A stretch of DNA of 64,000 bases from NCBI GenBank assembly GCA_000165345.1, contig CM000431.1:608001-672000 (forward strand), written 5' to 3'. Shown piece after piece: positions 4,637 to 62,945 of the stretch. The notes under the pieces are model-generated. The model was not told the origin of the DNA, searched no databases, and worked only from the letters and a program-made list of their open reading frames with translations. The position numbers and the translations under genes are program-made. Within the stretch, counting starts at the first letter, position 1; each line of letters begins with the position of its first letter.

Positions 4637-6838
4637 TTATAGAAAAGTTAATGATAGTGCTAGTATTAAGGGTGATAGTAATCCTATCAGCAAATGTTTG
4701 AACATTGTTGATTTCAAGCACCTATCATCCCTAAATAAATGAAATAAATTTTCCGTAAAAATTTCATAAAAATTCTTCCCGTTGTAATTACACATATTTT
4801 TTTCTATTTTAATTTCCACCCAACTGATCCACTGCAAAATAGGGATACTTTTAATTATTTTATACTGTTTTGAAACCTGGTCAAAACCATCCAATGATAA
4901 CCTATTACAGAAATTATTTATCTCTGCTGAAAAATATTGTTTATTACGACAAAATATCTCGTTCCCTAAAACGGAGTTCCAAATAGATGCAGAATTTTTC
5001 GCTTTGCTAATATCGAAACCAAGATTATAAATAAAATGTTTTGAATTTAAAATATTTGCAATATCTATCAAAAAATATCTTGTCTTCATTGCTATTTTTG
5101 ATAAAATACATGCATAGTAGTCTCCTTTCTTTTTATAACAACAAAAATTTAATAAAATCACCAGGAAAATTGTCCAGATTATAAATTTTCGAAAAGCTGA
5201 AGAATCCATGATAAAAATAATAAATAGAATGATGGGAATAATAAAAACCAAAATGCTGAAATTTTTTGTTGAAAGAATAATTGAGAAGGCAATTAGAAAT
5301 ATTTTATTCATTATCTTAATAGAATTAATAATATCTTTGTATGCGCTACTATTCTTTTGAACATTAAATAGTTTAATGAATATATTAATGCTTGAAGTAA
5401 CAAAAAATGTGATGAAGAAGACCACAAAAGTTAATGCAATAAACAAGGGCCACAAGTTTGTATATTCGGATTCAGATAAATTGGAGCAATCAAATAAAGA
5501 ATTACCAATTTTATCAAATAAATGCACAACCAAGAGTATTATTGGAGCAGTTATTGAAATCAAACAAGCTATTAGAATAATTCCAATAAGTAGAATACTG
5601 CTTTCTTTTGATATTTGTGCTAATATTCCGATCGAAAATGATATTAACATCAGAATAATTGGGACTAAATAAATACCAAAGTTTAGTGTTGAAAAATATG
5701 ATGTAAAATAGTATTTGTTACTTGATTGATGCAATTCATCATGAAGGTTACTTTGAATCTTAACAATACCTTCTAAAAATTTATAAATCTCAAATTGTTG
5801 AATTGGAAATATTGAAATGAACTCGTTCGCATCATTGCTGTCCTTAAAATGATCCCAAATTTCATTATTCGCTATCGAAAATTCATCAACCAAAGAAAGT
5901 GTAAATGAATTGATATTATTTTGCAAAAATCGACTGTGAGGTTTATACGATCCTTTATTAAACGCTTGCCTGAAGCAATTATTTGGCAAATTAATGGTTT
6001 TTAAAAGCTTACCTTGCAATTGAATCCCAAAAATTCCTTGTAATTATAGATATAGGAGGATAGGTGAAGCTTGATTCAACTTCCCTAATAACAGAATTGG
6101 GGAAATCTTGATTAGTTTGTAGTCCATCCATAGATTCTACTAAAAGTTAGAAATTAACATACATGATTGAATCAACTTACCGATGTCAATAAAGACTCTT
6201 GTTGGAGTTAACGATAATATTTCAATACAAATTGCAGTTCGTATTCTACCATTGTATTTTAGCAGTCTTTGGTCAATTGCCAGATCCTTCAGAAATGAGT
6301 TAATTCCCATTGAATTTGGAATGTTCGAATCCGTAAAAAGTAGAATTATGTCTTTCGAAGTCCAGTAAATCTTTTCAAAATGTTTGGAAAGAGGAATAAT
6401 TAAGCCTGCTGCACTACCCAGTTCATCTTTTCCATCTTTATATTTCCATGGAAAGGAAATAGAAATTATTATTACTTCTGAAGAATCGCCTCTTTTTGAT
6501 GGAACTACAGCTGCAATATACCCGGAACTTAAGAGGTATAAATCTTTATATCTGTATGAAGAGAAGTTTTTATTTTTTATTATATCAATGTCTCCAGAAT
6601 CATCGCATTCAATGCAGTGAGTGTCCCTTGCGATAGAATTAATTATGCTTTGCGCAACCAATTCAGCGTTACCCGATTTTTGAGAAGTTAGTATCTCTTG
6701 GGTTACTTTCTTATATTCAAGTACGATGCTGCGGTCAACTGTAGCCTTATTTACTCCTTCAGAAAACCCACTTTCTTTTACTTGCGTAACTTTATCAAAG
6801 CCTGGAAGAGATAAAAGAAATAAAACCCCAATAAGCAA
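4637..6838 (-). CDS. GAA1: GPI-anchor transamidase component GAA1 (GPAA1). Three exons: complement(6181..6838, 6013..6139, 4637..5969).
   Basis: Two track ORFs (6140..6838 and 4637..6019) are joined by two micro-introns of 41 and 43 nt, with donors GTAAGT and GTAAGC and acceptors TTTTAG and TTCAG. Exon 1 has an N-terminal signal anchor and a luminal domain matching GPAA1 (KHFEKIYWTSKDIILLFTD vs [21 protein letters not shown]). The C-terminal half is multi-pass membrane. Reading phase is conserved across both junctions and the total is 706 codons. Confidence 0.6.
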
Positions 6839-7235: not shown

Positions 7236-9824
7236 ATGGCTAAAGGAACATTTCAATGTTTTGGTTTTTCTCCAAAGCTTTTGGAGTCAATAAAGATTAT
7301 AGGCTATTCTCTTCCAACTCCGATTCAGCGTAAATGTTTTCCGTCTATTTTAGCAGGTAGAGATGTGGTTGCTATGGCAAGAACAGGTTCTGGTAAAACT
7401 GCGGGTTTCGTATTGCCTATGATTGAACGATTGGGCTGCTCTCATTCGCAAATTGTTGGAATTAGGGGAGTTATATTGTCTCCAACTAGAGAGCTTGCAT
7501 TACAGACTTATCGTGTTGTGCGAAAGCTTGCCTGTAAAACGAATTTGGTTGTTTGCGCACTAACAGGTGGCTCATCGCTTGATAGACAGTTTGAATCATT
7601 ATCTGGAAATCCAGATATTGTAGTTGCAACTCCAGGAAGATTATTCCATCACATTATAGAAGCAGGGCTTTCATTAATAGCTGTCAAAATAATTGTTCTT
7701 GATGAGGCAGACCGACTATTTGAAATGGGATTAGCCAGCCAAATTGAGAAAATATTGGAGTCCATCCCAAAGAATAGGCAATGCGTATTAGTATCAGCTA
7801 CAATGCCTACAGCTCTTGCATCATTTTCTAAAGTTATGTTAAACGAGCCGGAAGTTATTCAAATTGATTCAGATTATATATTAAGTGAAACATTAAAGTT
7901 AACATTTCTCTTTGTTAGAGAGGATGAAAAGCTTGCATCCTTACTATACTTGCTTAGAAACACTATTCCTTCTCACGAAAGAGCTATTATTTTTTGCGCA
8001 ACTAAACATCATGTTGATTATATCGTAAAAATTCTTGAATCAAACAACATTATAGTTAGTTATATTTATGGAAATATGGATCAAGAGGCACGTACAATGC
8101 ATTTGAACACTTTTAGAAAGAATAAGAGTAGAGCGTTAATAGTAACTGACATTGCTGCAAGAGGCGTGGATATACCAATGATCAAATATGTCATAAATTT
8201 TGATTTTCCATTGAGCCCAAAATTATTTGTTCATAGGACTGGAAGAACAGCAAGGGCAGGACAACATGGCAGAGCATTTTCGCTTATTACTTCCAGAGAT
8301 TTACCATACACGATTGACCTTTGTCTGTTTCTTGGCCTTAAAATGACTACGTTAACAAGTAAACAGACTACAGATTCATCAAATTATAGCTTAAACACAG
8401 AAAATAGAGTTGAAGCTGGCATAAGAGACGATGATATTCATGAAGAAGGGATATCTTTTATTAAACCAGCTTCTTTAAATGATTTTCATGGAGAGTCAAG
8501 ATTAATTTTAGCTGGTTTCCCTGATCTTACACTGGAGATAGAATCTATTGAAAGAGTTCTTACTGAGAATTCTGAAATAGAGAGGTGTAGGAGGTCAATG
8601 GAATCTGCGTATTTATTGTACTTGAAAACCAGGACACCATCTTCAAAAGAAAGTTTAAAAAGATCACGGGAACTTTTAGAAAAGTGCGGAGGAGTATCAA
8701 AAATATTAATGTCTATTCATCCAGATTTAAATATAGATACCAATGAAACTAATTTAAATATCGTAACTTTTCAAAATCTCGGAGTTATCAGCGACCCTCT
8801 TTTGGACCATTTGAAATCATTTAGACCAACTGAGAACAAAACTCACAATAAGTATGGGTGCCTTAACCAAGCTACTGGAAAGATGGTTTTAAAGTCATCA
8901 ATCAAGATGAAAAAAATTAAAGATATGGGCAACGTTGTAAAATCAATTCTAAGTGAAGATAAATTTGCAATTGGCACCTCTATTTCTGAGAGTCAAAATG
9001 GTATTTCAGACGAAATATCTTCAAATAATAATATTTCACAGAATTTTGTGAATAAAAAAAGAAAGCCTAAGAAACAGTGTAATAGAGTTAAAGAATCAGA
9101 ACATTTCTTTATACCTTATAAAAATAGTGAAGGGGAAGTTTCTAGATCGACTGGATTACAATTAGAGTCATCAAGTTTTGATATTAATCCTGATGAAGAG
9201 GGCGAGATGAAAAGACAAAAGTGCGTTAGAAAATGGAACTCTAAAAGGAAAAGGTATGAGCTAATCGATATTTCTAAAAAAAATTCCATCAAAAAGTTTA
9301 ACGAAAGTGGTATTAAGGTTAAAGGAGAGCTAAAGTGTACGGGGCAATATAAGAAATGGAAGGCAAATACAAATTTAAAGATCCAGAATGTTGGTGAAAT
9401 CGAGGATACAGAACTTAATAAAACTATTCGTAATAATGGGTTTAAAGATAAATATAATACGAGCGATATTAACTCTTCATTTGACTATTCGAACGTACAT
9501 GATAAACATAAAGGGATCATTGAGGCTATAAGTAAAGGTATTAAGCTAACTCACAAACAGAAACGTATTGCAAGACGCATTGGAATAATCAAGGAAAAAA
9601 TTGTTAATAAAAGCAAAAGTTTGCAAAATGAAATAAGAACTCCGCAGCAGATTCTTAAAAAACGAGCAAATGACGTCAAACAAAGAATGAAAAATGATTT
9701 AGAATTTAGAAGAAAGCAGCTAGCAAAAAAAAATAAGGAGTTTGCAGAGAAGAATTTTAAAAAAGTTATTCAAAAGGGGAGACCGAACAGGAGTAAAGTT
9801 GTGCTAGTTGAAAGGCGTAGATAG
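7236..9824 (+). CDS. DEAD-box ATP-dependent RNA helicase, DDX54/Dbp10-like, with a long basic C-terminal extension.
   Basis: The 862-aa ORF has the Q motif (PTPIQ), motif I (AMARTGSGKTAGF), PTRELA, TPGR, DEAD (VLDEADRLFEMG), SAT and motif VI (HRTGRTARAG). Confidence 0.85.
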   Translation: MAKGTFQCFGFSPKLLESIKIIGYSLPTPIQRKCFPSILAGRDVVAMARTGSGKTAGFVLPMIERLGCSHSQIVGIRGVILSPTRELALQTYRVVRKLACKTNLVVCALTGGSSLDRQFESLSGNPDIVVATPGRLFHHIIEAGLSLIAVKIIVLDEADRLFEMGLASQIEKILESIPKNRQCVLVSATMPTALASFSKVMLNEPEVIQIDSDYILSETLKLTFLFVREDEKLASLLYLLRNTIPSHERAIIFCATKHHVDYIVKILESNNIIVSYIYGNMDQEARTMHLNTFRKNKSRALIVTDIAARGVDIPMIKYVINFDFPLSPKLFVHRTGRTARAGQHGRAFSLITSRDLPYTIDLCLFLGLKMTTLTSKQTTDSSNYSLNTENRVEAGIRDDDIHEEGISFIKPASLNDFHGESRLILAGFPDLTLEIESIERVLTENSEIERCRRSMESAYLLYLKTRTPSSKESLKRSRELLEKCGGVSKILMSIHPDLNIDTNETNLNIVTFQNLGVISDPLLDHLKSFRPTENKTHNKYGCLNQATGKMVLKSSIKMKKIKDMGNVVKSILSEDKFAIGTSISESQNGISDEISSNNNISQNFVNKKRKPKKQCNRVKESEHFFIPYKNSEGEVSRSTGLQLESSSFDINPDEEGEMKRQKCVRKWNSKRKRYELIDISKKNSIKKFNESGIKVKGELKCTGQYKKWKANTNLKIQNVGEIEDTELNKTIRNNGFKDKYNTSDINSSFDYSNVHDKHKGIIEAISKGIKLTHKQKRIARRIGIIKEKIVNKSKSLQNEIRTPQQILKKRANDVKQRMKNDLEFRRKQLAKKNKEFAEKNFKKVIQKGRPNRSKVVLVERRR

Positions 9825-54448: not shown

Positions 54449-57400
54449 ATGTCCACAGCATTGGAGTTGAACTCTCCATTTAGCAGTAAAGAGTTAAAAA
54501 GAGTATTTAGTATCGAATTTGGCGTCCTTTCACCCGAACTAATACGTAAGTATTCCGTACTCGAGATTAAAGTATCAGATATTTATGAAAATGGAAGACC
54601 TAAATCAGGTGGGCTTAACGACCCATTGTTGGGCACAACAGACTATCATATTCTTTGCGAAACTTGTCATATGGATATAAAAACATGTCCTGGCCACTTT
54701 GCGCATATTGAGCTTGGAAAGCCCATGTTTCATATCGGATTTATTACTACAGTACTTAAGCTTCTCAGATGCGTGTGCTATGCATGCTCTAAGTTATTCG
54801 TTGATACATTAGATCCCAAGTTTAAACAAATAAAACGCATTAAGAATCCAAGACTTAGATTGAAGAAAATTCTAGAAATGAGAAGCTCTTCATCCAGATG
54901 TATAATTTCTAGTGATGGTTCTGGATGCGGGTTTGTCCAACCAACCTATTCGAAAGAAGGATATAATTTGTATATTAATCAAAATCAAGATGAAAACAGA
55001 ATTATTGACGATGAAAGTGTTGATTCGAAGAGGTTGCTAGCCGCAGAAGAGGTACTTACAATTTTTAAAAGGATATCTCACGATGACATGAAGATTCTTG
55101 GATTTGATCCTGTAAAATGTAATCCTTCTTGGTTTATTAATACGGTAATACCGATTCCTCCTCCAGCTGTTAGACCATACGTTCAATTCGGAAGCGATCG
55201 GAGCGAAGATGATTTGACTTTAAAACTACAACAAATAATCAAGTTGAATGAAAATCTTAAAAAACAGATTCGTATTGGGTCTCCTGAACATATTATTAGT
55301 GAAATGTCAACTGTACTTCAATATCATTTAATTACACTTATTAATAACGACTTACCTGGTTTGCCTCAATCTAGAACAAGGAGTAACAGGCCAATCAAAT
55401 CTCTCAGAGCACGTCTAAAAGGCAAGGATGGTCGCATACGCGGTAACTTAATGGGTAAAAGGGTAGATTTCTCTGCAAGAACAGTAATAACAGGCGATCC
55501 TAACTTAGCTGTCGACCAAGTTGGAGTTCCATATTCTATTGCTATGACACTTACTTATCCTGAAGTTGTTACACCATATAATATAGAAGAGCTAAAGGAG
55601 TTGGTGCAAAGAGGACCGCATGAATGGCCAGGAGCAACTAGTATTATTCAGGAGGACGGAACAAAGGTTGACCTAAGGTTTTCAAATACCTCAAATAATT
55701 CGAATAATATTCTTCAATATGGATGGAAGGTTGAAAGGCATATGAAGAATGATGATCTAGTGCTCTTCAACAGGCAGCCTAGTCTACATAAGATGAGTAT
55801 TATGGGTCATCGTGTAAAAATTTTACCTTATTCTACATTTAGACTTAATCTTTCGGTAACTTCGCCATATAATGCAGACTTTGATGGAGATGAAATGAAC
55901 CTTCACCTGGCGCAATCGCATGAGACCCGATCTGAAATCAAAAACTTGATGATGGTTCCGAGACAAATAGTTTCTCCTCAAGGTAACAAACCCGTAATAG
56001 GCATAGTTCAGGATTCATTACTTGGAATTTTTCTTCTAACGAGAAAATCAACCTTTTTAACTAGAGATAAATTTTTACAGCTCTTATTATGTATTCCTTA
56101 TTGGAACGGAAACATCCCTCCTCCTGCAATACTTAGGCCTCAGCCTTTATGGACTGGGAAACAGATTATTACAGTGCTACTTGCATTTACAACAGACTTG
56201 GGTGAGCCAATTGAATTGAATTTAATGCGAGATGGTAGTATTGTATCGATTAAGCAATCTAATAACTCTTCTAATACAGATAAAGATGATTCTAAAGAAG
56301 CTATAGTTAACAATCCTTGGATATCAGAGCTGGATAATCAAGTAATAATCCAGAAGGGAGAGCATATTTGCGGAGTACTCACAAAAAAAATTGCAGGGTC
56401 TTCTTCAGGTTCACTAATTCACATTTTATGGAATGAAATTGGCCCAGAAAAAACTGGATTGTTTTTGACGTATACTCAGATGGTAGTTAATACATGGCTT
56501 CTTGAGCACGGCTTCACTGTAGGATGTCAGGACATTCAACCACAAAATTATACCTTGGAAAAAATAATGAACTCTTTAGAAGGCTCAAAGTTACAAGTTC
56601 AACAAATTATCAGGCGCGCTCAGAAAGGTAAACTTGATTGTCAGCCAGGTAAGAGCCTAATTGAATCTTTTGAGGCTCAAGTTAATCAGGAATTGAATAG
56701 TGCGCGTGAGTTGTCTGGTACGATTGCAACTGAGAACCTCGATTCTTCTAAAAACAATATTGTTGCAATGGTCCAATGTGGAAGCAAAGGGTCAACTATA
56801 AATATTTCACAGATTATGGCATGCGTTGGGCAGCAAAATGTCGAAGGTAAACGTATTCCATTTGGGTTTAGGGATAGAAGCTTGCCACATTTTTTGAAAT
56901 ATGATTATGGGCCTGAAAGTCGTGGTTTTGTTTCGAACTCATATCTTTCAGGTCTTACACCCCAGGAAGTTTTTTTTCATGCTATGGGAGGCAGAGAAGG
57001 AATCATTGATACTGCTTGTAAAACTTCAGAAACAGGGTATATACAAAGAAGGCTAATAAAGGCAATGGAAGATTGTATGGTACAGTATGATAGAACTGTT
57101 AGGAATAGTAATGGCGACATTATTCAATTTCTTTATGGAGAAGATGGAATGGCAGGAGAGTTTATTGAGGACCAAGTTATCGAACTACTACAGATGGAGG
57201 CAGCAGTGTTCCAGCACAAGTATCGTCACAATCTTGAACATCCGAGATGGGGTTCTAGCTGGGCTGGTGTCCAACCTTCCTTGATAAAAAATCTACAATT
57301 TGATCTAGAATCTCAGAATATACTGAACTCCGAGTATAAACAACTTGTAACAGACCGCGAGCAGCTTGGGAAAGACATTTTCCCAGATGGTGAAACAAGA

Positions 57401-60136
57401 CAACATCTTCCGATTAATATCAATAGAATAATTCAAATGGCTCAACAAAAGTTTCCACAAAGGGTAAGTGATACGTCATCGAGCAAGGATTGGGGGCCAG
57501 TTTACATCATAAAAAAGGTTGAATCATTGCTTGATAAACTATTGCTTTGGAAGAACGTCGGGATTATCAATGATGAAGGCAATAAATCTAATTTTGTATT
57601 TGATAGTATTATTGCTGAAGTTCAAAAGAATGCCACAACTTTGCTAGGGATACATATTAGAAGCTCTTTAGCTAGTAAAAAAATATTAGAGGTTGATAGG
57701 CTTGGACCAACTGCATTTGAGTGGATACTTGGGGAAATTGAACATCAGTTTTATAGAAGTCTTGCACACTCCGGTGAGATGGTTGGCACTATAGCAGCAC
57801 AGTCAATTGGAGAACCTGCAACGCAAATGACATTAAATACCTTCCACTTTGCTGGTGTGGGCTCAAAAAATGTAACTCTCGGTGTTCCAAGGCTGAGAGA
57901 GCTAATTAATGTTGCAAAAAATGTTAGAACACCAACCTTAACTGTTTATCTTGAAAGCGGGATTGCAAACGACCAAGAACAGGCAAAAGATGTATTAACA
58001 TTATTAGAACATACGATGCTACAAAACATTACGACTATTGCGCACATTTTATATGACCCAGAACAAGACAAGACTATTGTCGAAGCAGATAAGAGTTGGG
58101 TTAGTGATTATTATGAATTTCCGGATGATGCGGATATTACAAGCAGACTTGGTACTTGGCTATTAAGAATTCAGTTGAATAACAAGCTTGTTACTGACAA
58201 AAAACTGTCAATGAAAGAAATTGGTGACAAAATTTTAATGGAATTTAGTAAAGATGAGTTGGATTGTATTTGGACTGACGATAACTCAGATGAGCTTGTA
58301 TTAAGACTCCGAATTAAAAACATTGAACCTACCAATAATATTCGCGATAATATACATTCTTCTGAAGAAAACGACTCGATTTCTCCCTCAATTACGTCAG
58401 GAGTTGAAGAGCATAAATTCCTGGAAAAACTAATGACGGAATGTCTTTCTCAAATTACCCTTAGAGGGATAAACAATATTAAGAAGGTTTATATGAAAGA
58501 GGAACAGGTTTCTAGATATGATAGTGTTAGTCAGAAAATGGTGAGAGACAACCAATGGGTGCTTGACACAGATGGGTGTAATCTTGAAGCAGTGCTTTGC
58601 CACACAGCAATAGATAGTACAAGAACAATCTCAAACGATATAACTGAAGTCTTTAGTGTATTAGGGATCGAAGCCGTAAGAAGAGCTCTTCTTAGAGAGT
58701 TGAGAACAGTAATTTCATTTGATGGAAGTTATGTAAACTATAGGCACTTAGCACTACTCTGCGATAATATGACTCAAAAGGGCCACTTAATGAGTATAAC
58801 AAGACATGGTATCAATAGAGTTGATAAGGGCCCGCTTCAAAAGTGCAGTTTTGAAGAGACAGTTGAAGTCTTAATGGATGCTGCTATGTTTGGAGAAACT
58901 GATTATCTTAATGGCGTAAGCGAAAATGTTATGCTTGGGCAGCTTGCTCCATATGGAACTGCATGCTTTGACGTCCTAATTGACCCTGATAAACTTAGGG
59001 ATACTGCTACTCATCTTGAAATTCATGGAGAATTTGCCAAACTCGGGAAATTCTCTACGCTTTCTCAAACAACAAGATCTTATTCCGACAGCGGGGCATT
59101 TGAATCGGATTCTTTTGAATCTCCAATGTCGCCTCTTTCTCCAATGTCTCCGCTTTACCAATCTTATGAACCAATGTCCCCTATGATTTCTGGTCAATTT
59201 TCTCCTGTTCAAATGACTCCAAGATCGCCAATGAGTCCAGTTTCACCAGGAGGGATATTCAGCCCAGTTCCATATTCTCCTATGAGTCCATCCTCACCAC
59301 TTATGGATTACACACCAACTTCTCCCATCTATGCAGCAAGTAGCCCAACATACAATACAGAGGTTTCTGAAAGGGCTAGAAAAAAGTATAAGGTTAACAA
59401 TACACTTAGCTCATACTCACCATCTTCACCATTAAATTCAGACAACAAAATAAGTAACATAAGTCCAGATTTATCACCAACATCACCGCATTATTCACCA
59501 ACATCTCCACATTATTCACCAACATCTCCACATTATTCACCAACATCACCACACTATTCACCAACATCACCACATTATTCACCAACGTCACCACATTATT
59601 CACCAACGTCACCACATTATTCACCAACGTCACCACATTATTCACCAACATCACCACATTATTCACCAACATCTCCACATTATTCTCCAACATCACCACA
59701 TTATTCGCCAACATCTCCACATTATTCTCCAACATCGCCTCACTACTCTCCTACCTCGCCACATTATTCACCAACATCACCGCATTACTCTCCAACATCA
59801 CCACACTATTCTCCATCATCACCGCATTATTCTCCAACTTCGCCTCAATACTCACCCACATCACCCAACTACAACCCCGCATCGCCAAATTATTCTCCCA
59901 CCTCACACTACTCTCCTACCTCGCCAAATTACAATCCTACCTCTCCGAATTATTCTCCATCTTCACCCAATTATATTTCAAATAACTCTGGCTCTCCTGG
60001 GTACTCGCCATCGTCACCTCAATATGATCCTATAGCGGTTGCTTCAGTCCCTAGATCTCCATCGTATTCTGTTGGAAAAATGGTAGACGCTGAATATTCA
60101 CCGTCTTCCCCTCTAGACGAAACAAAGAATTCATAA
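54449..60136 (+). CDS. RPB1: DNA-directed RNA polymerase II largest subunit (RPB1) with a heptad-repeat CTD.
   Basis: The 1895-aa ORF has the zinc motif CETCHMDIKTCPGHFAHIEL, the catalytic NADFDGDEMNLH, trigger-loop and bridge-helix regions, and a CTD of about 24 YSPTSPH heptads decaying into YSPTSPN/YNPTSPNYSPSSP. Confidence 0.95.
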   Translation: MSTALELNSPFSSKELKRVFSIEFGVLSPELIRKYSVLEIKVSDIYENGRPKSGGLNDPLLGTTDYHILCETCHMDIKTCPGHFAHIELGKPMFHIGFITTVLKLLRCVCYACSKLFVDTLDPKFKQIKRIKNPRLRLKKILEMRSSSSRCIISSDGSGCGFVQPTYSKEGYNLYINQNQDENRIIDDESVDSKRLLAAEEVLTIFKRISHDDMKILGFDPVKCNPSWFINTVIPIPPPAVRPYVQFGSDRSEDDLTLKLQQIIKLNENLKKQIRIGSPEHIISEMSTVLQYHLITLINNDLPGLPQSRTRSNRPIKSLRARLKGKDGRIRGNLMGKRVDFSARTVITGDPNLAVDQVGVPYSIAMTLTYPEVVTPYNIEELKELVQRGPHEWPGATSIIQEDGTKVDLRFSNTSNNSNNILQYGWKVERHMKNDDLVLFNRQPSLHKMSIMGHRVKILPYSTFRLNLSVTSPYNADFDGDEMNLHLAQSHETRSEIKNLMMVPRQIVSPQGNKPVIGIVQDSLLGIFLLTRKSTFLTRDKFLQLLLCIPYWNGNIPPPAILRPQPLWTGKQIITVLLAFTTDLGEPIELNLMRDGSIVSIKQSNNSSNTDKDDSKEAIVNNPWISELDNQVIIQKGEHICGVLTKKIAGSSSGSLIHILWNEIGPEKTGLFLTYTQMVVNTWLLEHGFTVGCQDIQPQNYTLEKIMNSLEGSKLQVQQIIRRAQKGKLDCQPGKSLIESFEAQVNQELNSARELSGTIATENLDSSKNNIVAMVQCGSKGSTINISQIMACVGQQNVEGKRIPFGFRDRSLPHFLKYDYGPESRGFVSNSYLSGLTPQEVFFHAMGGREGIIDTACKTSETGYIQRRLIKAMEDCMVQYDRTVRNSNGDIIQFLYGEDGMAGEFIEDQVIELLQMEAAVFQHKYRHNLEHPRWGSSWAGVQPSLIKNLQFDLESQNILNSEYKQLVTDREQLGKDIFPDGETRQHLPININRIIQMAQQKFPQRVSDTSSSKDWGPVYIIKKVESLLDKLLLWKNVGIINDEGNKSNFVFDSIIAEVQKNATTLLGIHIRSSLASKKILEVDRLGPTAFEWILGEIEHQFYRSLAHSGEMVGTIAAQSIGEPATQMTLNTFHFAGVGSKNVTLGVPRLRELINVAKNVRTPTLTVYLESGIANDQEQAKDVLTLLEHTMLQNITTIAHILYDPEQDKTIVEADKSWVSDYYEFPDDADITSRLGTWLLRIQLNNKLVTDKKLSMKEIGDKILMEFSKDELDCIWTDDNSDELVLRLRIKNIEPTNNIRDNIHSSEENDSISPSITSGVEEHKFLEKLMTECLSQITLRGINNIKKVYMKEEQVSRYDSVSQKMVRDNQWVLDTDGCNLEAVLCHTAIDSTRTISNDITEVFSVLGIEAVRRALLRELRTVISFDGSYVNYRHLALLCDNMTQKGHLMSITRHGINRVDKGPLQKCSFEETVEVLMDAAMFGETDYLNGVSENVMLGQLAPYGTACFDVLIDPDKLRDTATHLEIHGEFAKLGKFSTLSQTTRSYSDSGAFESDSFESPMSPLSPMSPLYQSYEPMSPMISGQFSPVQMTPRSPMSPVSPGGIFSPVPYSPMSPSSPLMDYTPTSPIYAASSPTYNTEVSERARKKYKVNNTLSSYSPSSPLNSDNKISNISPDLSPTSPHYSPTSPHYSPTSPHYSPTSPHYSPTSPHYSPTSPHYSPTSPHYSPTSPHYSPTSPHYSPTSPHYSPTSPHYSPTSPHYSPTSPHYSPTSPHYSPTSPHYSPTSPHYSPSSPHYSPTSPQYSPTSPNYNPASPNYSPTSHYSPTSPNYNPTSPNYSPSSPNYISNNSGSPGYSPSSPQYDPIAVASVPRSPSYSVGKMVDAEYSPSSPLDETKNS
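59470..60010 (+). repeat. 21-bp tandem coding repeats that encode the RPB1 CTD heptads.
   Basis: Repeats of ACATC(A/T)CC(A/G)CA(T/C)TATTC(A/T)CCA. They produce a spurious antisense ORF, 59406..59735 (-), consisting of VVMLVNN repeats. Confidence 0.8.
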
Positions 60137-60173
60137 ATTACGAAGTAATATATAATTAGGAAACTATAAGTAG

Positions 60174-62945
60174 CTAAGAAATTAATAATTTATTTTCTTG
60201 AATAATATGTTCCGTTATCCATGCTCTTTGACTAGTATTAATAATTTTTTTTTGAACAGCTTGCTCTAAAGCATTTTGAACTGAGAGCGATACTGTATTT
60301 TCAATTTTCTCCGAACAAATAACTGGAATTTTCCCAGATTGTTCAATTATGAGTTTGCATTTGTTTATTATTCTAGGCTCTCCGTCAACTTGAAAAGGGA
60401 GTTGTCTAGGAATATATACGACTATATGGCTACCTTGGCACAACTTAATTGGCTCTGTGAGCCCAACTTGTAGTTGGGTTAAATGAAAAAGAGATCTAAT
60501 ACCTACAACTTCTATTAGCCCATCATCAATCTTTTGCAACTGGAACTTATTAATTCCAAACTTAGTGGGCTCATCATTTATTTCTAAGTTATTTAATTTG
60601 GGGGACAAAGATAACCCTTGTTTAAAGGCTTTAGAAAACCATGATTTGAGTAAATTAGTCGATCTCTTCCTTCCTTCTCTCAATTCTAATCGAGTATTAT
60701 CTGTTTCATCGCATTCTGAAAATTCTGAATTCGAGCAAGATAAGTATCCAGAATTCTTGAAATTATCTATTGAAAATGACATTGATCTATCTGACAAGCC
60801 TTTCCCCATTTTTCTGCTAGTTAAAGTGGTAGTCCTTCTAATTGTATTGGTATCTCTATTTTTGCGTGGTTTTTTAAAAAATTGATTTGAAATTTTCCAA
60901 AGATTTACTCCGCCTGAAAAACTAGGAATATTACAAATAATGAGGCCTTCAAGCCTATTTTCTCTTGAATTAAAATTATTATGAATTTCAGTGATAGATT
61001 TATTATTTACTTTATTTTTAATGGAGTTCCCAAGCCCAAAAATGTCTGCAGCTGGAATTAAGAACCAATTAATATATTTTTTAATAATAAAATTATAAAT
61101 ATTCATTAAATGATGATATCCTTGAAAATAATCGTCATTTATTGATCTGTTTCCTAGTAAGTTTATGGACTCTTCGCTTTTGCTTGAAAAAGACCCTCCT
61201 ACTTGATTTGAAATAGAAACCTCCTTTCCATCACAAAGTATTTTTAAACCATCTAATTGAATGCTTTTGTTAAAGAAATCTCTAAATCCTACTTCACCAT
61301 AAACTAGTTGGTTTCCAAGCCTGCTTTTGAAGTGTTGAGGATATGCTTCTCTTAAGTTATGGAACTTTAATGCAATTCGCGCAGCAATACCAATATCTAA
61401 ATAGTTGATAAATGTAGATGAGAACAACATATTGTGATTATCATGAGTATTATTAGAATCTCCATTTTTTAAATCCCATGCAGTACATTTCCAAATATCC
61501 ATTTGCTTAATATTCGAAGTGCATATTCTTTTTAAAAAGTTCAGAATGTCACCGTTAAACGTAACATCCCATCCCAATGTTCTGCTGAGATCATTTCCAG
61601 TCCCTAATGGAAGGACTGCAATAGGAGGGAGACTATTTGAATTTACTCCATAAATTTCTCTGCATCTATCTATTACCCATCTTACTGTTCCGTCCCCTCC
61701 ACATATAAGAATCATCAATTTTTTCATTTTTGCAAGATGCTTGAATAAATATAATGCTTCATCTGGGCCTTTTGAGCTTTGAATATCAACTACTTGAATT
61801 GGATTTAAATAAATATGTAGATTTTTTATTAATCCTTGTCCAAGGTGTCCGCCTGACTTTGTGTTTACAAATACAAGTAAAGGCTTTCCTGAATTAGTAT
61901 ATAAAAAGTCATCAAAAAACTTTAATTTTTTTTTAATTAAATTAGATTTATGGAACATCTGTATATAATGAGAAATACTTCTTTTACTTGGAGAAGATGT
62001 TAAGTTAGTTTTAATAACATCGGTGGGATTAGTATCCAAATTATTTGCTGAAACATTAATTAAACTATTTGGATTGAAAATATTTTTTTCCTCATTCTTT
62101 AAAGTAGAGAAGTTAGTACTTAGTGTTGAGTTGCCACTCTTTTCTAAGCTATGGAGTTCAAATACAAAAGAGTTTGGAGGTAAAATAATATACTTGAGCG
62201 TTCCAAAGTCGCACTGCTTCTGAGTAATTTTGTTATTCTCAGCGCATTCATCATGGTATGTTCGGTTACACCAAATGCACTTTTGTCCGTATAAGCCGAA
62301 TGGAGAGAAACAGACAGTTAGACAAATTGAACAAATAGCTCCAGAGTGTAAATTGCCTTTCATTAATACATGGCAATGAATTTTTTGTTGAGGAATTAAG
62401 CCATCTAAATTATTCGATTCATCATTATTTAAAAATGTTTTATTCTTAAATTGGATAAGTGAGCCACTTTTAATAAAATAATTCGATGAACATTCATCCT
62501 TGCAATATTCTGAGTCTGACTGCATTATACAGTGCATATGCGAAATCCGCTTACAAATCAAGCACTGCCAACCTTCATAGTTTCTCATTAATAAAAAGCG
62601 TTTTTTTATAATTCCAGAACACTTCGTACAATACTTAGGATATTCAGGAGTTTCATATAAAACCCAATTATGTCTCAATTTAATGTGCCTCAAAATACTG
62701 TTATTACTATTGTTCTTTTGTAAATAATATAATATAGCTATTGTTACAATTGAAGCAATTAATGTAGTAAATATGAGAAAATACCAATGGCCTGCTTTTA
62801 ATGCAGATATATGTCTTTTTATGATGTTTAGTGCGATTTTTATTACATTTGATGCTTCGCGGAATGGAATAAATTTATTTATAATTTCAATTACAAGTGA
62901 AAAGTAAGTTTCATATTTTGAGTAGGCTATCATTATTTTGAACAA
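60174..62945 (-). CDS. Diacylglycerol kinase with two C1 (phorbol-ester/DAG-type) zinc fingers and an N-terminal transmembrane segment.
   Basis: The 923-aa ORF has two C1 domains (H..........C..C..........C..C....H..C). The DAGKc domain has KPLLVFVNTKSGGHLG...LICGGDGTV...VLPLGTGNDLSRTLGW. The accessory domain has ...PSFSGGVNLW. Confidence 0.85.
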   Translation of the reverse strand: MFKIMIAYSKYETYFSLVIEIINKFIPFREASNVIKIALNIIKRHISALKAGHWYFLIFTTLIASIVTIAILYYLQKNNSNNSILRHIKLRHNWVLYETPEYPKYCTKCSGIIKKRFLLMRNYEGWQCLICKRISHMHCIMQSDSEYCKDECSSNYFIKSGSLIQFKNKTFLNNDESNNLDGLIPQQKIHCHVLMKGNLHSGAICSICLTVCFSPFGLYGQKCIWCNRTYHDECAENNKITQKQCDFGTLKYIILPPNSFVFELHSLEKSGNSTLSTNFSTLKNEEKNIFNPNSLINVSANNLDTNPTDVIKTNLTSSPSKRSISHYIQMFHKSNLIKKKLKFFDDFLYTNSGKPLLVFVNTKSGGHLGQGLIKNLHIYLNPIQVVDIQSSKGPDEALYLFKHLAKMKKLMILICGGDGTVRWVIDRCREIYGVNSNSLPPIAVLPLGTGNDLSRTLGWDVTFNGDILNFLKRICTSNIKQMDIWKCTAWDLKNGDSNNTHDNHNMLFSSTFINYLDIGIAARIALKFHNLREAYPQHFKSRLGNQLVYGEVGFRDFFNKSIQLDGLKILCDGKEVSISNQVGGSFSSKSEESINLLGNRSINDDYFQGYHHLMNIYNFIIKKYINWFLIPAADIFGLGNSIKNKVNNKSITEIHNNFNSRENRLEGLIICNIPSFSGGVNLWKISNQFFKKPRKNRDTNTIRRTTTLTSRKMGKGLSDRSMSFSIDNFKNSGYLSCSNSEFSECDETDNTRLELREGRKRSTNLLKSWFSKAFKQGLSLSPKLNNLEINDEPTKFGINKFQLQKIDDGLIEVVGIRSLFHLTQLQVGLTEPIKLCQGSHIVVYIPRQLPFQVDGEPRIINKCKLIIEQSGKIPVICSEKIENTVSLSVQNALEQAVQKKIINTSQRAWITEHIIQENKLLIS

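Follow-up and report, generated by a model that had tools for sequence, protein, structure and literature searches.

What is to be made of an RNA polymerase (Pol) II C-terminal domain (CTD) in which heptad after heptad ends in histidine? The question is raised by the RPB1 gene on contig CM000431.1 of GenBank assembly GCA_000165345.1, within a stretch of 64,000 nucleotides (positions 608,001 to 672,000, forward strand) that we refer to as the window. This gene ends in a tandem array of heptads, many of them YSPTSPH, i.e., with His at position 7 (His7). We suggest that the array is very probably an ordinary RPB1 CTD, in which a rare, lineage-specific histidine occupies a position already known to vary, rather than an element of a new type.

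The gene that carries the array is an ordinary, intact RPB1. It is a single open reading frame (ORF) without introns, see Table 1, and its translation contains the seven Rpb1 domains of Pfam in canonical order (PF04997, PF00623, PF04983, PF05000, PF04998, PF04992 and PF04990, each far over the Pfam cut-off, with E-values from 1e-35 to 1e-100), followed by the CTD repeat PF05001. The catalytic aspartate motif NADFDGDEM is present as SPYNADFDGDEMNLH, and its residues are invariant in an alignment of 41 sequences. In a search of 5.8 billion proteins the best matches are apicomplexan RPB1 proteins. The top matches are all annotated as RPB1 or as the largest subunit of Pol II, which places the protein with Pol II and not with the largest subunits of Pol I or Pol III. 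These domains and matches bear out the assignment to an RPB1 CTD made in the first-pass annotation of the window.

The array is in frame and belongs to the final 246 codons of the ORF (59400-60136). Over 59474-59865, Tandem Repeats Finder (TRF) detects a period of 21 bp with a score of 546, counting 18.7 copies that match at 87%. A higher-order period of 63 bp was rejected, as its match of 84% is not above the 87% of the 21-bp period. Read in register, the array opens with a block of units that all carry His7: LSPTSPH (59471), 15 exact copies of YSPTSPH (59492-59806) and YSPSSPH (59807). The degenerate units that follow are, in order, YSPTSPQ, YSPTSPN, YNPASPN, YSPTSH, YSPTSPN, YNPTSPN and YSPSSPN. 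Here YSPTSH (59891-59908) has six residues, and the register shifts at this point. The protein then ends in a tail that reads YISNNSGSPG, YSPSSPQ, YDPIAVASVPRSPS, YSVGKMVDAE, YSPSSPL and DETKNS before the stop codon (60134-60136), where the third and fourth segments are irregular but each anchored by a tyrosine.

The first-pass annotation had counted about 24 YSPTSPH heptads. The 21-bp array does lie where it was placed, but only 17 of its units carry His7, while 24 is the number of all contiguous units (59471-59971), i.e., the 17 His7 units and the seven distal ones; three further heptads are isolated. The degenerate, Asn-rich tail that it described is found as well, including the register break at YSPTSH.

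Tandem, in-register Y-S-P-x-S-P-x heptads at the extreme C-terminus define a canonical CTD, and this is the arrangement found here. Across the 24 units, Y1 is present in 23, S2 in 22, P3 in 24, S5 in 24 and P6 in 23. Each adjacent pair of the 17-unit block also contains the paired functional unit, in which Tyr residues seven apart flank three Ser-Pro pairs (PMC3646058). As in the canonical YSPTSPS CTD of yeast, animals and plants, the heptads follow a Ser/Pro-rich linker at the C-terminus of RPB1, repeat Tyr1, Ser2-Pro3, Thr4 and Ser5-Pro6 in tandem and in register, form a regular proximal and a degenerate distal block, and match PF05001. Yeast has 26 units and human 52 (PMC3646058), compared with the 24 contiguous ones here. 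However, position 7 is different, being His in 17 units, Gln or Asn in the remainder and Ser in none of the 24 contiguous units when these are read in register, so that Ser7 phosphorylation is impossible within them. The missing Ser7 does not disqualify the array as a CTD, because many accepted CTDs carry A, K, V, T or N there. The window array contains no Lys7 either, the residue that defines the expansion of the Plasmodium type.

How unusual this choice of residue is can be seen from 331 CTD-bearing sequences, collected by word-indexed searches of the 5.8 billion proteins and by an exhaustive phmmer search of 1.84 billion cluster representatives. Histidine occupies position 7 in 19 of their 4532 heptads (0.4%); the commoner residues are Ala (1546), Ser (1443), Gln (327), Gly (280), Thr (206) and Asn (188). 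Apart from the window and Cryptosporidium xiaoi, no RPB1 in this set has two consecutive His7 heptads, and when the CTD is used as phmmer query the best identities end at 83-86%, i.e., at six of seven positions. The first-pass remark that a His7 array is unusual is supported by these counts. The only other run of His7 units is found in P0288, a protein of 954 residues with seven YSPSSPH units followed by YSPTSPS units. It was rejected as a CTD orthologue, as it is not an RPB1 and its repeats lie in the middle of the protein. Like P0288, the proteins P0186, P0189 and P0193 are non-RPB1 proteins with CTD-like heptad arrays, and several MATH/USP7-like proteins of Mytilus match the Rpb1 repeat; such non-RPB1 heptad proteins may be CTD mimics.

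Metagenomes and the literature add no further case. When contigs of JGI metagenomes were scanned for a pair of adjacent YSPTSPH units with TCN serine codons, there were 0 matches, although units with AGY serines would escape such a scan. In the literature searched, the only three apparent matches to YSPTSPH are strings such as 'YSPTSphosPT' in tables of human phosphopeptides. No description of a Cryptosporidium heptad consensus was found there either, the two main comparative CTD papers being outside this search. C. parvum was listed as being without a CTD in 2004 (PMC521075), and C. parvum and C. hominis were treated as having a repeat structure in 2013 (PMC3646058).

A comparison of the fetched apicomplexan RPB1 sequences shows that position 7 is lineage-specific. 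Theileria and Babesia gibsoni have Ala there and B. duncani has Val; primate Plasmodium has Lys, Gregarina niphandrodes Thr, and both Hammondia and Besnoitia a mixture of Met with Ala. The Lys7 that the first-pass annotation ascribed to Plasmodium is confirmed for the primate-infecting species (7/9 in P. gaboni, 6/10 in P. vivax), and a passage in PMC4232647, citing Kishore 2009, describes this expansion. The Plasmodium YSPTSPK block is, like the His7 block, a lineage-specific and recently homogenised apicomplexan block with a residue other than Ser at position 7. However, its residue is Lys and its units are far fewer, with 4-7 Lys7 heptads per species among those fetched. In mammals, Lys7 is also a site of acetylation and methylation (PMC4758952). 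The Ala7 and Val7 arrays of stramenopiles, Theileria and Babesia are likewise very regular, with ~14-24 units and a uniform, non-phosphorylatable position 7, but there the side chain is small or hydrophobic, whereas the window has a titratable aromatic base. For the stramenopiles, regular YSPTSPA arrays have been described (PMC3646058).

The closest relatives of the window protein are found in a single cluster at 90% identity, which consists of the RPB1 proteins of C. bovis (partial), C. ryanae (partial) and C. xiaoi (full length, 1853 residues; KAK6589279.1). Within the core, the window RPB1 is ~91% identical to all three. At four-fold degenerate third positions the identity between the window and these relatives falls to 0.35-0.38, against 0.33 expected from base composition, and synonymous sites are therefore saturated. 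At the same sites, C. xiaoi is 66% identical to C. ryanae and 93% identical to C. bovis. Such values place the window as a fourth, more distant Cryptosporidium, inside or just outside the C. bovis/C. ryanae/C. xiaoi group. The window has a GC content of 26-39% in bins of 2 kb and genes without introns, and both features fit Cryptosporidium. All four genomes have the same gene order, i.e., an ORF of ~1200 residues, one of ~200 residues, RPB1 and a convergent diacylglycerol kinase.

The RPB1 genes of the three relatives are orthologous to that of the window and resemble it in their distal, Asn-rich YNP/YSP units and in their end motifs; Q-YDP and EEYSPSS, near the terminus, are common to the window and C. 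xiaoi. The proximal part is arranged differently. In C. xiaoi the array reads N N H H H N N N H H H N at position 7, i.e., six His7 units in two blocks of three between Asn7 blocks, with identical DNA within each type (contig 6493-6744). This pattern fits a six-unit block duplication that is very recent, or a partial assembly collapse. Further on, four Lys7 units stand at alternate distal positions, and the distal units of the window align with these N/K/D-type units. In C. ryanae the array opens with four Asn7 units before His7, reading ASPTSPN, three YSPTSPN and two YSPTSPH, and the contig then ends (6472-6627). The C. bovis contig stops after two Asn7 units (7981-8051). The window, in contrast, opens directly with His7, keeps it unbroken for 17 units and has much more synonymous diversity among them.

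The DNA of the His unit, TATTCACCAACATCACCACAT, is identical in the window, C. xiaoi and C. ryanae, which needs no special explanation since the gene prefers A/T-ending codons elsewhere too. On the sequences compared, His7 is a lineage trait common to these three, and neither an error nor a peculiarity of the window genome. The window species is distinctive only in the unbroken His7 block that opens its array.

The RPB1 proteins of C. parvum, C. hominis, C. muris and C. andersoni were not returned by searches of the 5.8 billion proteins with the full protein, the C-terminal 395 residues or the core. These searches did return more distant apicomplexans, and Cryptosporidium only in the form of the C. 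bovis cluster. The search with the C-terminal 395 residues returned only proteins shorter than ~700 residues, so that a full-length RPB1 was out of its reach. The missing species are either absent from the collection or present there and unreturned. A scan of metagenome proteins with the C-terminal core and linker gave only distant RPB1 proteins, at 41-57% identity, and none from Cryptosporidium.

At the DNA level, the 17 His7 units fall into 12 distinct spellings and differ from the consensus, TATTCACCAACATCACCACAT, at 29 places, 27 of them third codon positions. Only three of the differences are non-synonymous and 26 are synonymous, while 27% of random single-base changes would be expected to be so (binomial p = 2e-12). 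As duplicated units inherit changes, each variant type can also be counted once, and in this conservative count the skew is still strong (11 synonymous versus 1-2 non-synonymous). The excess of synonymous differences shows that heptad positions 1-6 are under purifying selection. The synonymous wobble of the 21-bp units and the purifying selection on a homogenised array, both proposed in the first-pass annotation, are therefore upheld. Identical units also lie side by side, with three of an ACG type at 59576-59638 and two of a TCT type at 59492-59533, and these runs point to local duplication or slippage. Among the His codons, CAC is used in 3 of the 17 units, which amounts to a single variant type and no more than three events.

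Phosphorylation and isomerisation of a CTD through the transcription cycle recruit capping, elongation and 3'-end factors. By analogy, the tail of the window RPB1 would be a disordered scaffold of in-register heptads that works as a canonical CTD. Tyr1, Ser2-Pro3, Thr4 and Ser5-Pro6 would be reversibly phosphorylated or isomerised in the cycle, with phosphate on Ser2 and Ser5 and probably on Tyr1 and Thr4 too, and the tail modified in this way would recruit the same factors. Position 7 is the least constrained position of the heptad and would contribute little to its essential function; in yeasts, CTDs with Ser7 replaced by Ala are viable. The residues found there in the clade are His, Asn, Gln and Lys, with the codons CAT, AAT, CAA and AAA, which lie single nucleotide steps apart. 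His7 is likely to have spread through the array by tandem duplication, slippage or unequal exchange, i.e., by concerted evolution, because identical neighbouring units run together and selection keeps positions 1-6. Each lineage would homogenise its own residue at the single tolerant position, and His7 would be another instance of this. Most likely His7 is a tolerated, near-neutral spelling.

Several points weigh against this explanation. The function of the array as a CTD is predicted from its sequence, and the view of His7 within the genus is confined to the C. bovis-group relatives. Position 7 is never replaced within the 17-unit block despite ample synonymous change (the 26 differences above), which hints at constraint on His. 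A genome with a GC content of ~32% should favour AAT or AAA (Asn or Lys) over CAT, yet His is kept, which is a second hint. Together with the rarity of His7 among CTD heptads and its persistence in a clade of four species despite saturated synonymous divergence, these hints would also fit an adaptive histidine, in which a titratable imidazole in every repeat endows the CTD with a new property. This might be compaction or condensate formation that depends on pH or metal, docking of a lineage-specific reader that replaces recognition of the Ser7 phosphate, or a modification of the histidine, although we know of none at His7. Co-condensation with the CTD is reported for the histidine-rich domains of two other proteins, cyclin T1 and DYRK1A. 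However, His7 alternates freely with Asn7 in C. xiaoi and C. ryanae, and distal units carry Q, N, K or D instead, so His7 is not strictly required. Other apicomplexans have fixed the chemically unrelated A, V, K, T and M, as would be expected where concerted evolution acts on a position that tolerates change. For the His codon itself the statistical signal is also weak, as the probability that position 7 escapes replacement by luck is ~0.02-0.25 for a block that was itself chosen for having His, and constraint on position 7 alone is no more than suggestive. We therefore regard an adaptive role of His7 as improbable. It seems just as doubtful that His7 is a functional innovation of this Cryptosporidium lineage in the form of a charge or metal switch in place of the Ser7 phospho-switch. 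If it were, the switch might tune the self-association of the CTD or recruit a lineage-specific reader, and the window CTD would be a natural experiment on position 7 in the CTD code.

It could also be asked whether the copy number of the His7 block, and perhaps its uniformity, was produced by the assembly through expansion, collapse or a mis-join. Arrays of this kind are clearly difficult, as the short-read contigs of C. bovis and C. ryanae both end inside the repeats, and the perfectly uniform units of C. xiaoi could reflect a collapse there. The window array is different in that its longest exact internal repeat is 62 bp, which, with the 12 spellings in 17 units, makes the path through the array essentially unique. 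The frame is intact across all 24 units and the tail. The 1.1-Mb chromosome CM109963.1 of NCBI assembly GCA_048859185.1 encodes an identical product of 1895 residues, as do three more contigs, four contigs above 1 Mb in all, although the isolates are possibly non-independent. An assembly artefact is thus unlikely, and we consider it the least probable of the explanations.

If the array is an ordinary CTD with a tolerated histidine, it is a natural CTD of 17 regular repeats with an ionisable His in place of Ser7, a residue that the CTD code usually counts. Together with the Ala7, Val7, Lys7 and Thr7 arrays of other apicomplexans it is evidence that position 7 drifts freely and is homogenised lineage by lineage. 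No new mechanism is revealed by it, and the His7 array is no anomaly but a curiosity that fits a known pattern. In practice, the array breaks short-read Cryptosporidium assemblies, and this is why the RPB1 proteins of C. bovis and C. ryanae are annotated as partial. Their gene models are cut just before the array, and the real genes almost certainly continue. The order of the units could mark differences in length or sequence between isolates.

Table 1. Features of the RPB1 locus and its neighbours, in window coordinates.
Feature	Position	Strand	Basis or remarks
RPB1 gene, single uninterrupted ORF, 1895 codons + stop	54449..60136	+	ORF list, translation, Pfam
Catalytic core, residues 17-1461, incl. 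active-site motif NADFDGDEM	54497..58831	+	Pfam coordinates, translation
Linker and proximal degenerate Ser-Pro region (SPMSPLSPMSPL...)	58832..59470	+	translation, TRF
Proximal CTD block, 17 His7 units of 21 bp, in register	59471..59827	+	register reading, TRF, DNA comparison
Distal degenerate units, 7	59828..59971	+	register reading
Irregular C-terminal tail	59972..60136	+	translation
Antisense 109-codon ORF in the array, repeat by-product	59406..59735	-	ORF list, translation
Diacylglycerol kinase	60174-62945	-	C1, DAGK_cat and DAGK_acc domains
Upstream ORF, 1201 residues	49918-53523		no Pfam match
Upstream ORF, 191 residues	53604-54179		no Pfam match

The linker upstream of the array shares 73% identity with that of C. 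xiaoi. Just before the array, at 59414-59470, the window has an insertion of 15 residues relative to C. xiaoi and C. bovis. It is aligned as SYSPSSPLNSDNKISNISPDL against GNSLS and holds an isolated YSPSSPL heptad (59414-59434). Within the linker, TRF also detects an 18-bp tandem duplication at 59120-59156. The region 59120-59300 encodes a Met-containing Ser-Pro stretch (SPMSPLSPMSPLYQSYEPMSPM...SPMSPVSP...YSPMSPSSP) that all three relatives conserve; it resembles a second, degenerate zone of SP motifs.

On the opposite strand of the array, the 109-codon ORF was rejected as a gene, since its translation is a periodic MLVNNVV... string that mirrors the heptads. The two ORFs upstream of RPB1 have counterparts at the same place in all three relatives, called there as genes of 1211-1214 and 215-220 residues. 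Downstream, the stop codons of RPB1 and of the convergent diacylglycerol kinase are 37 bp apart (60137-60173), and the 3' ends of the two genes must fit into this space or overlap.

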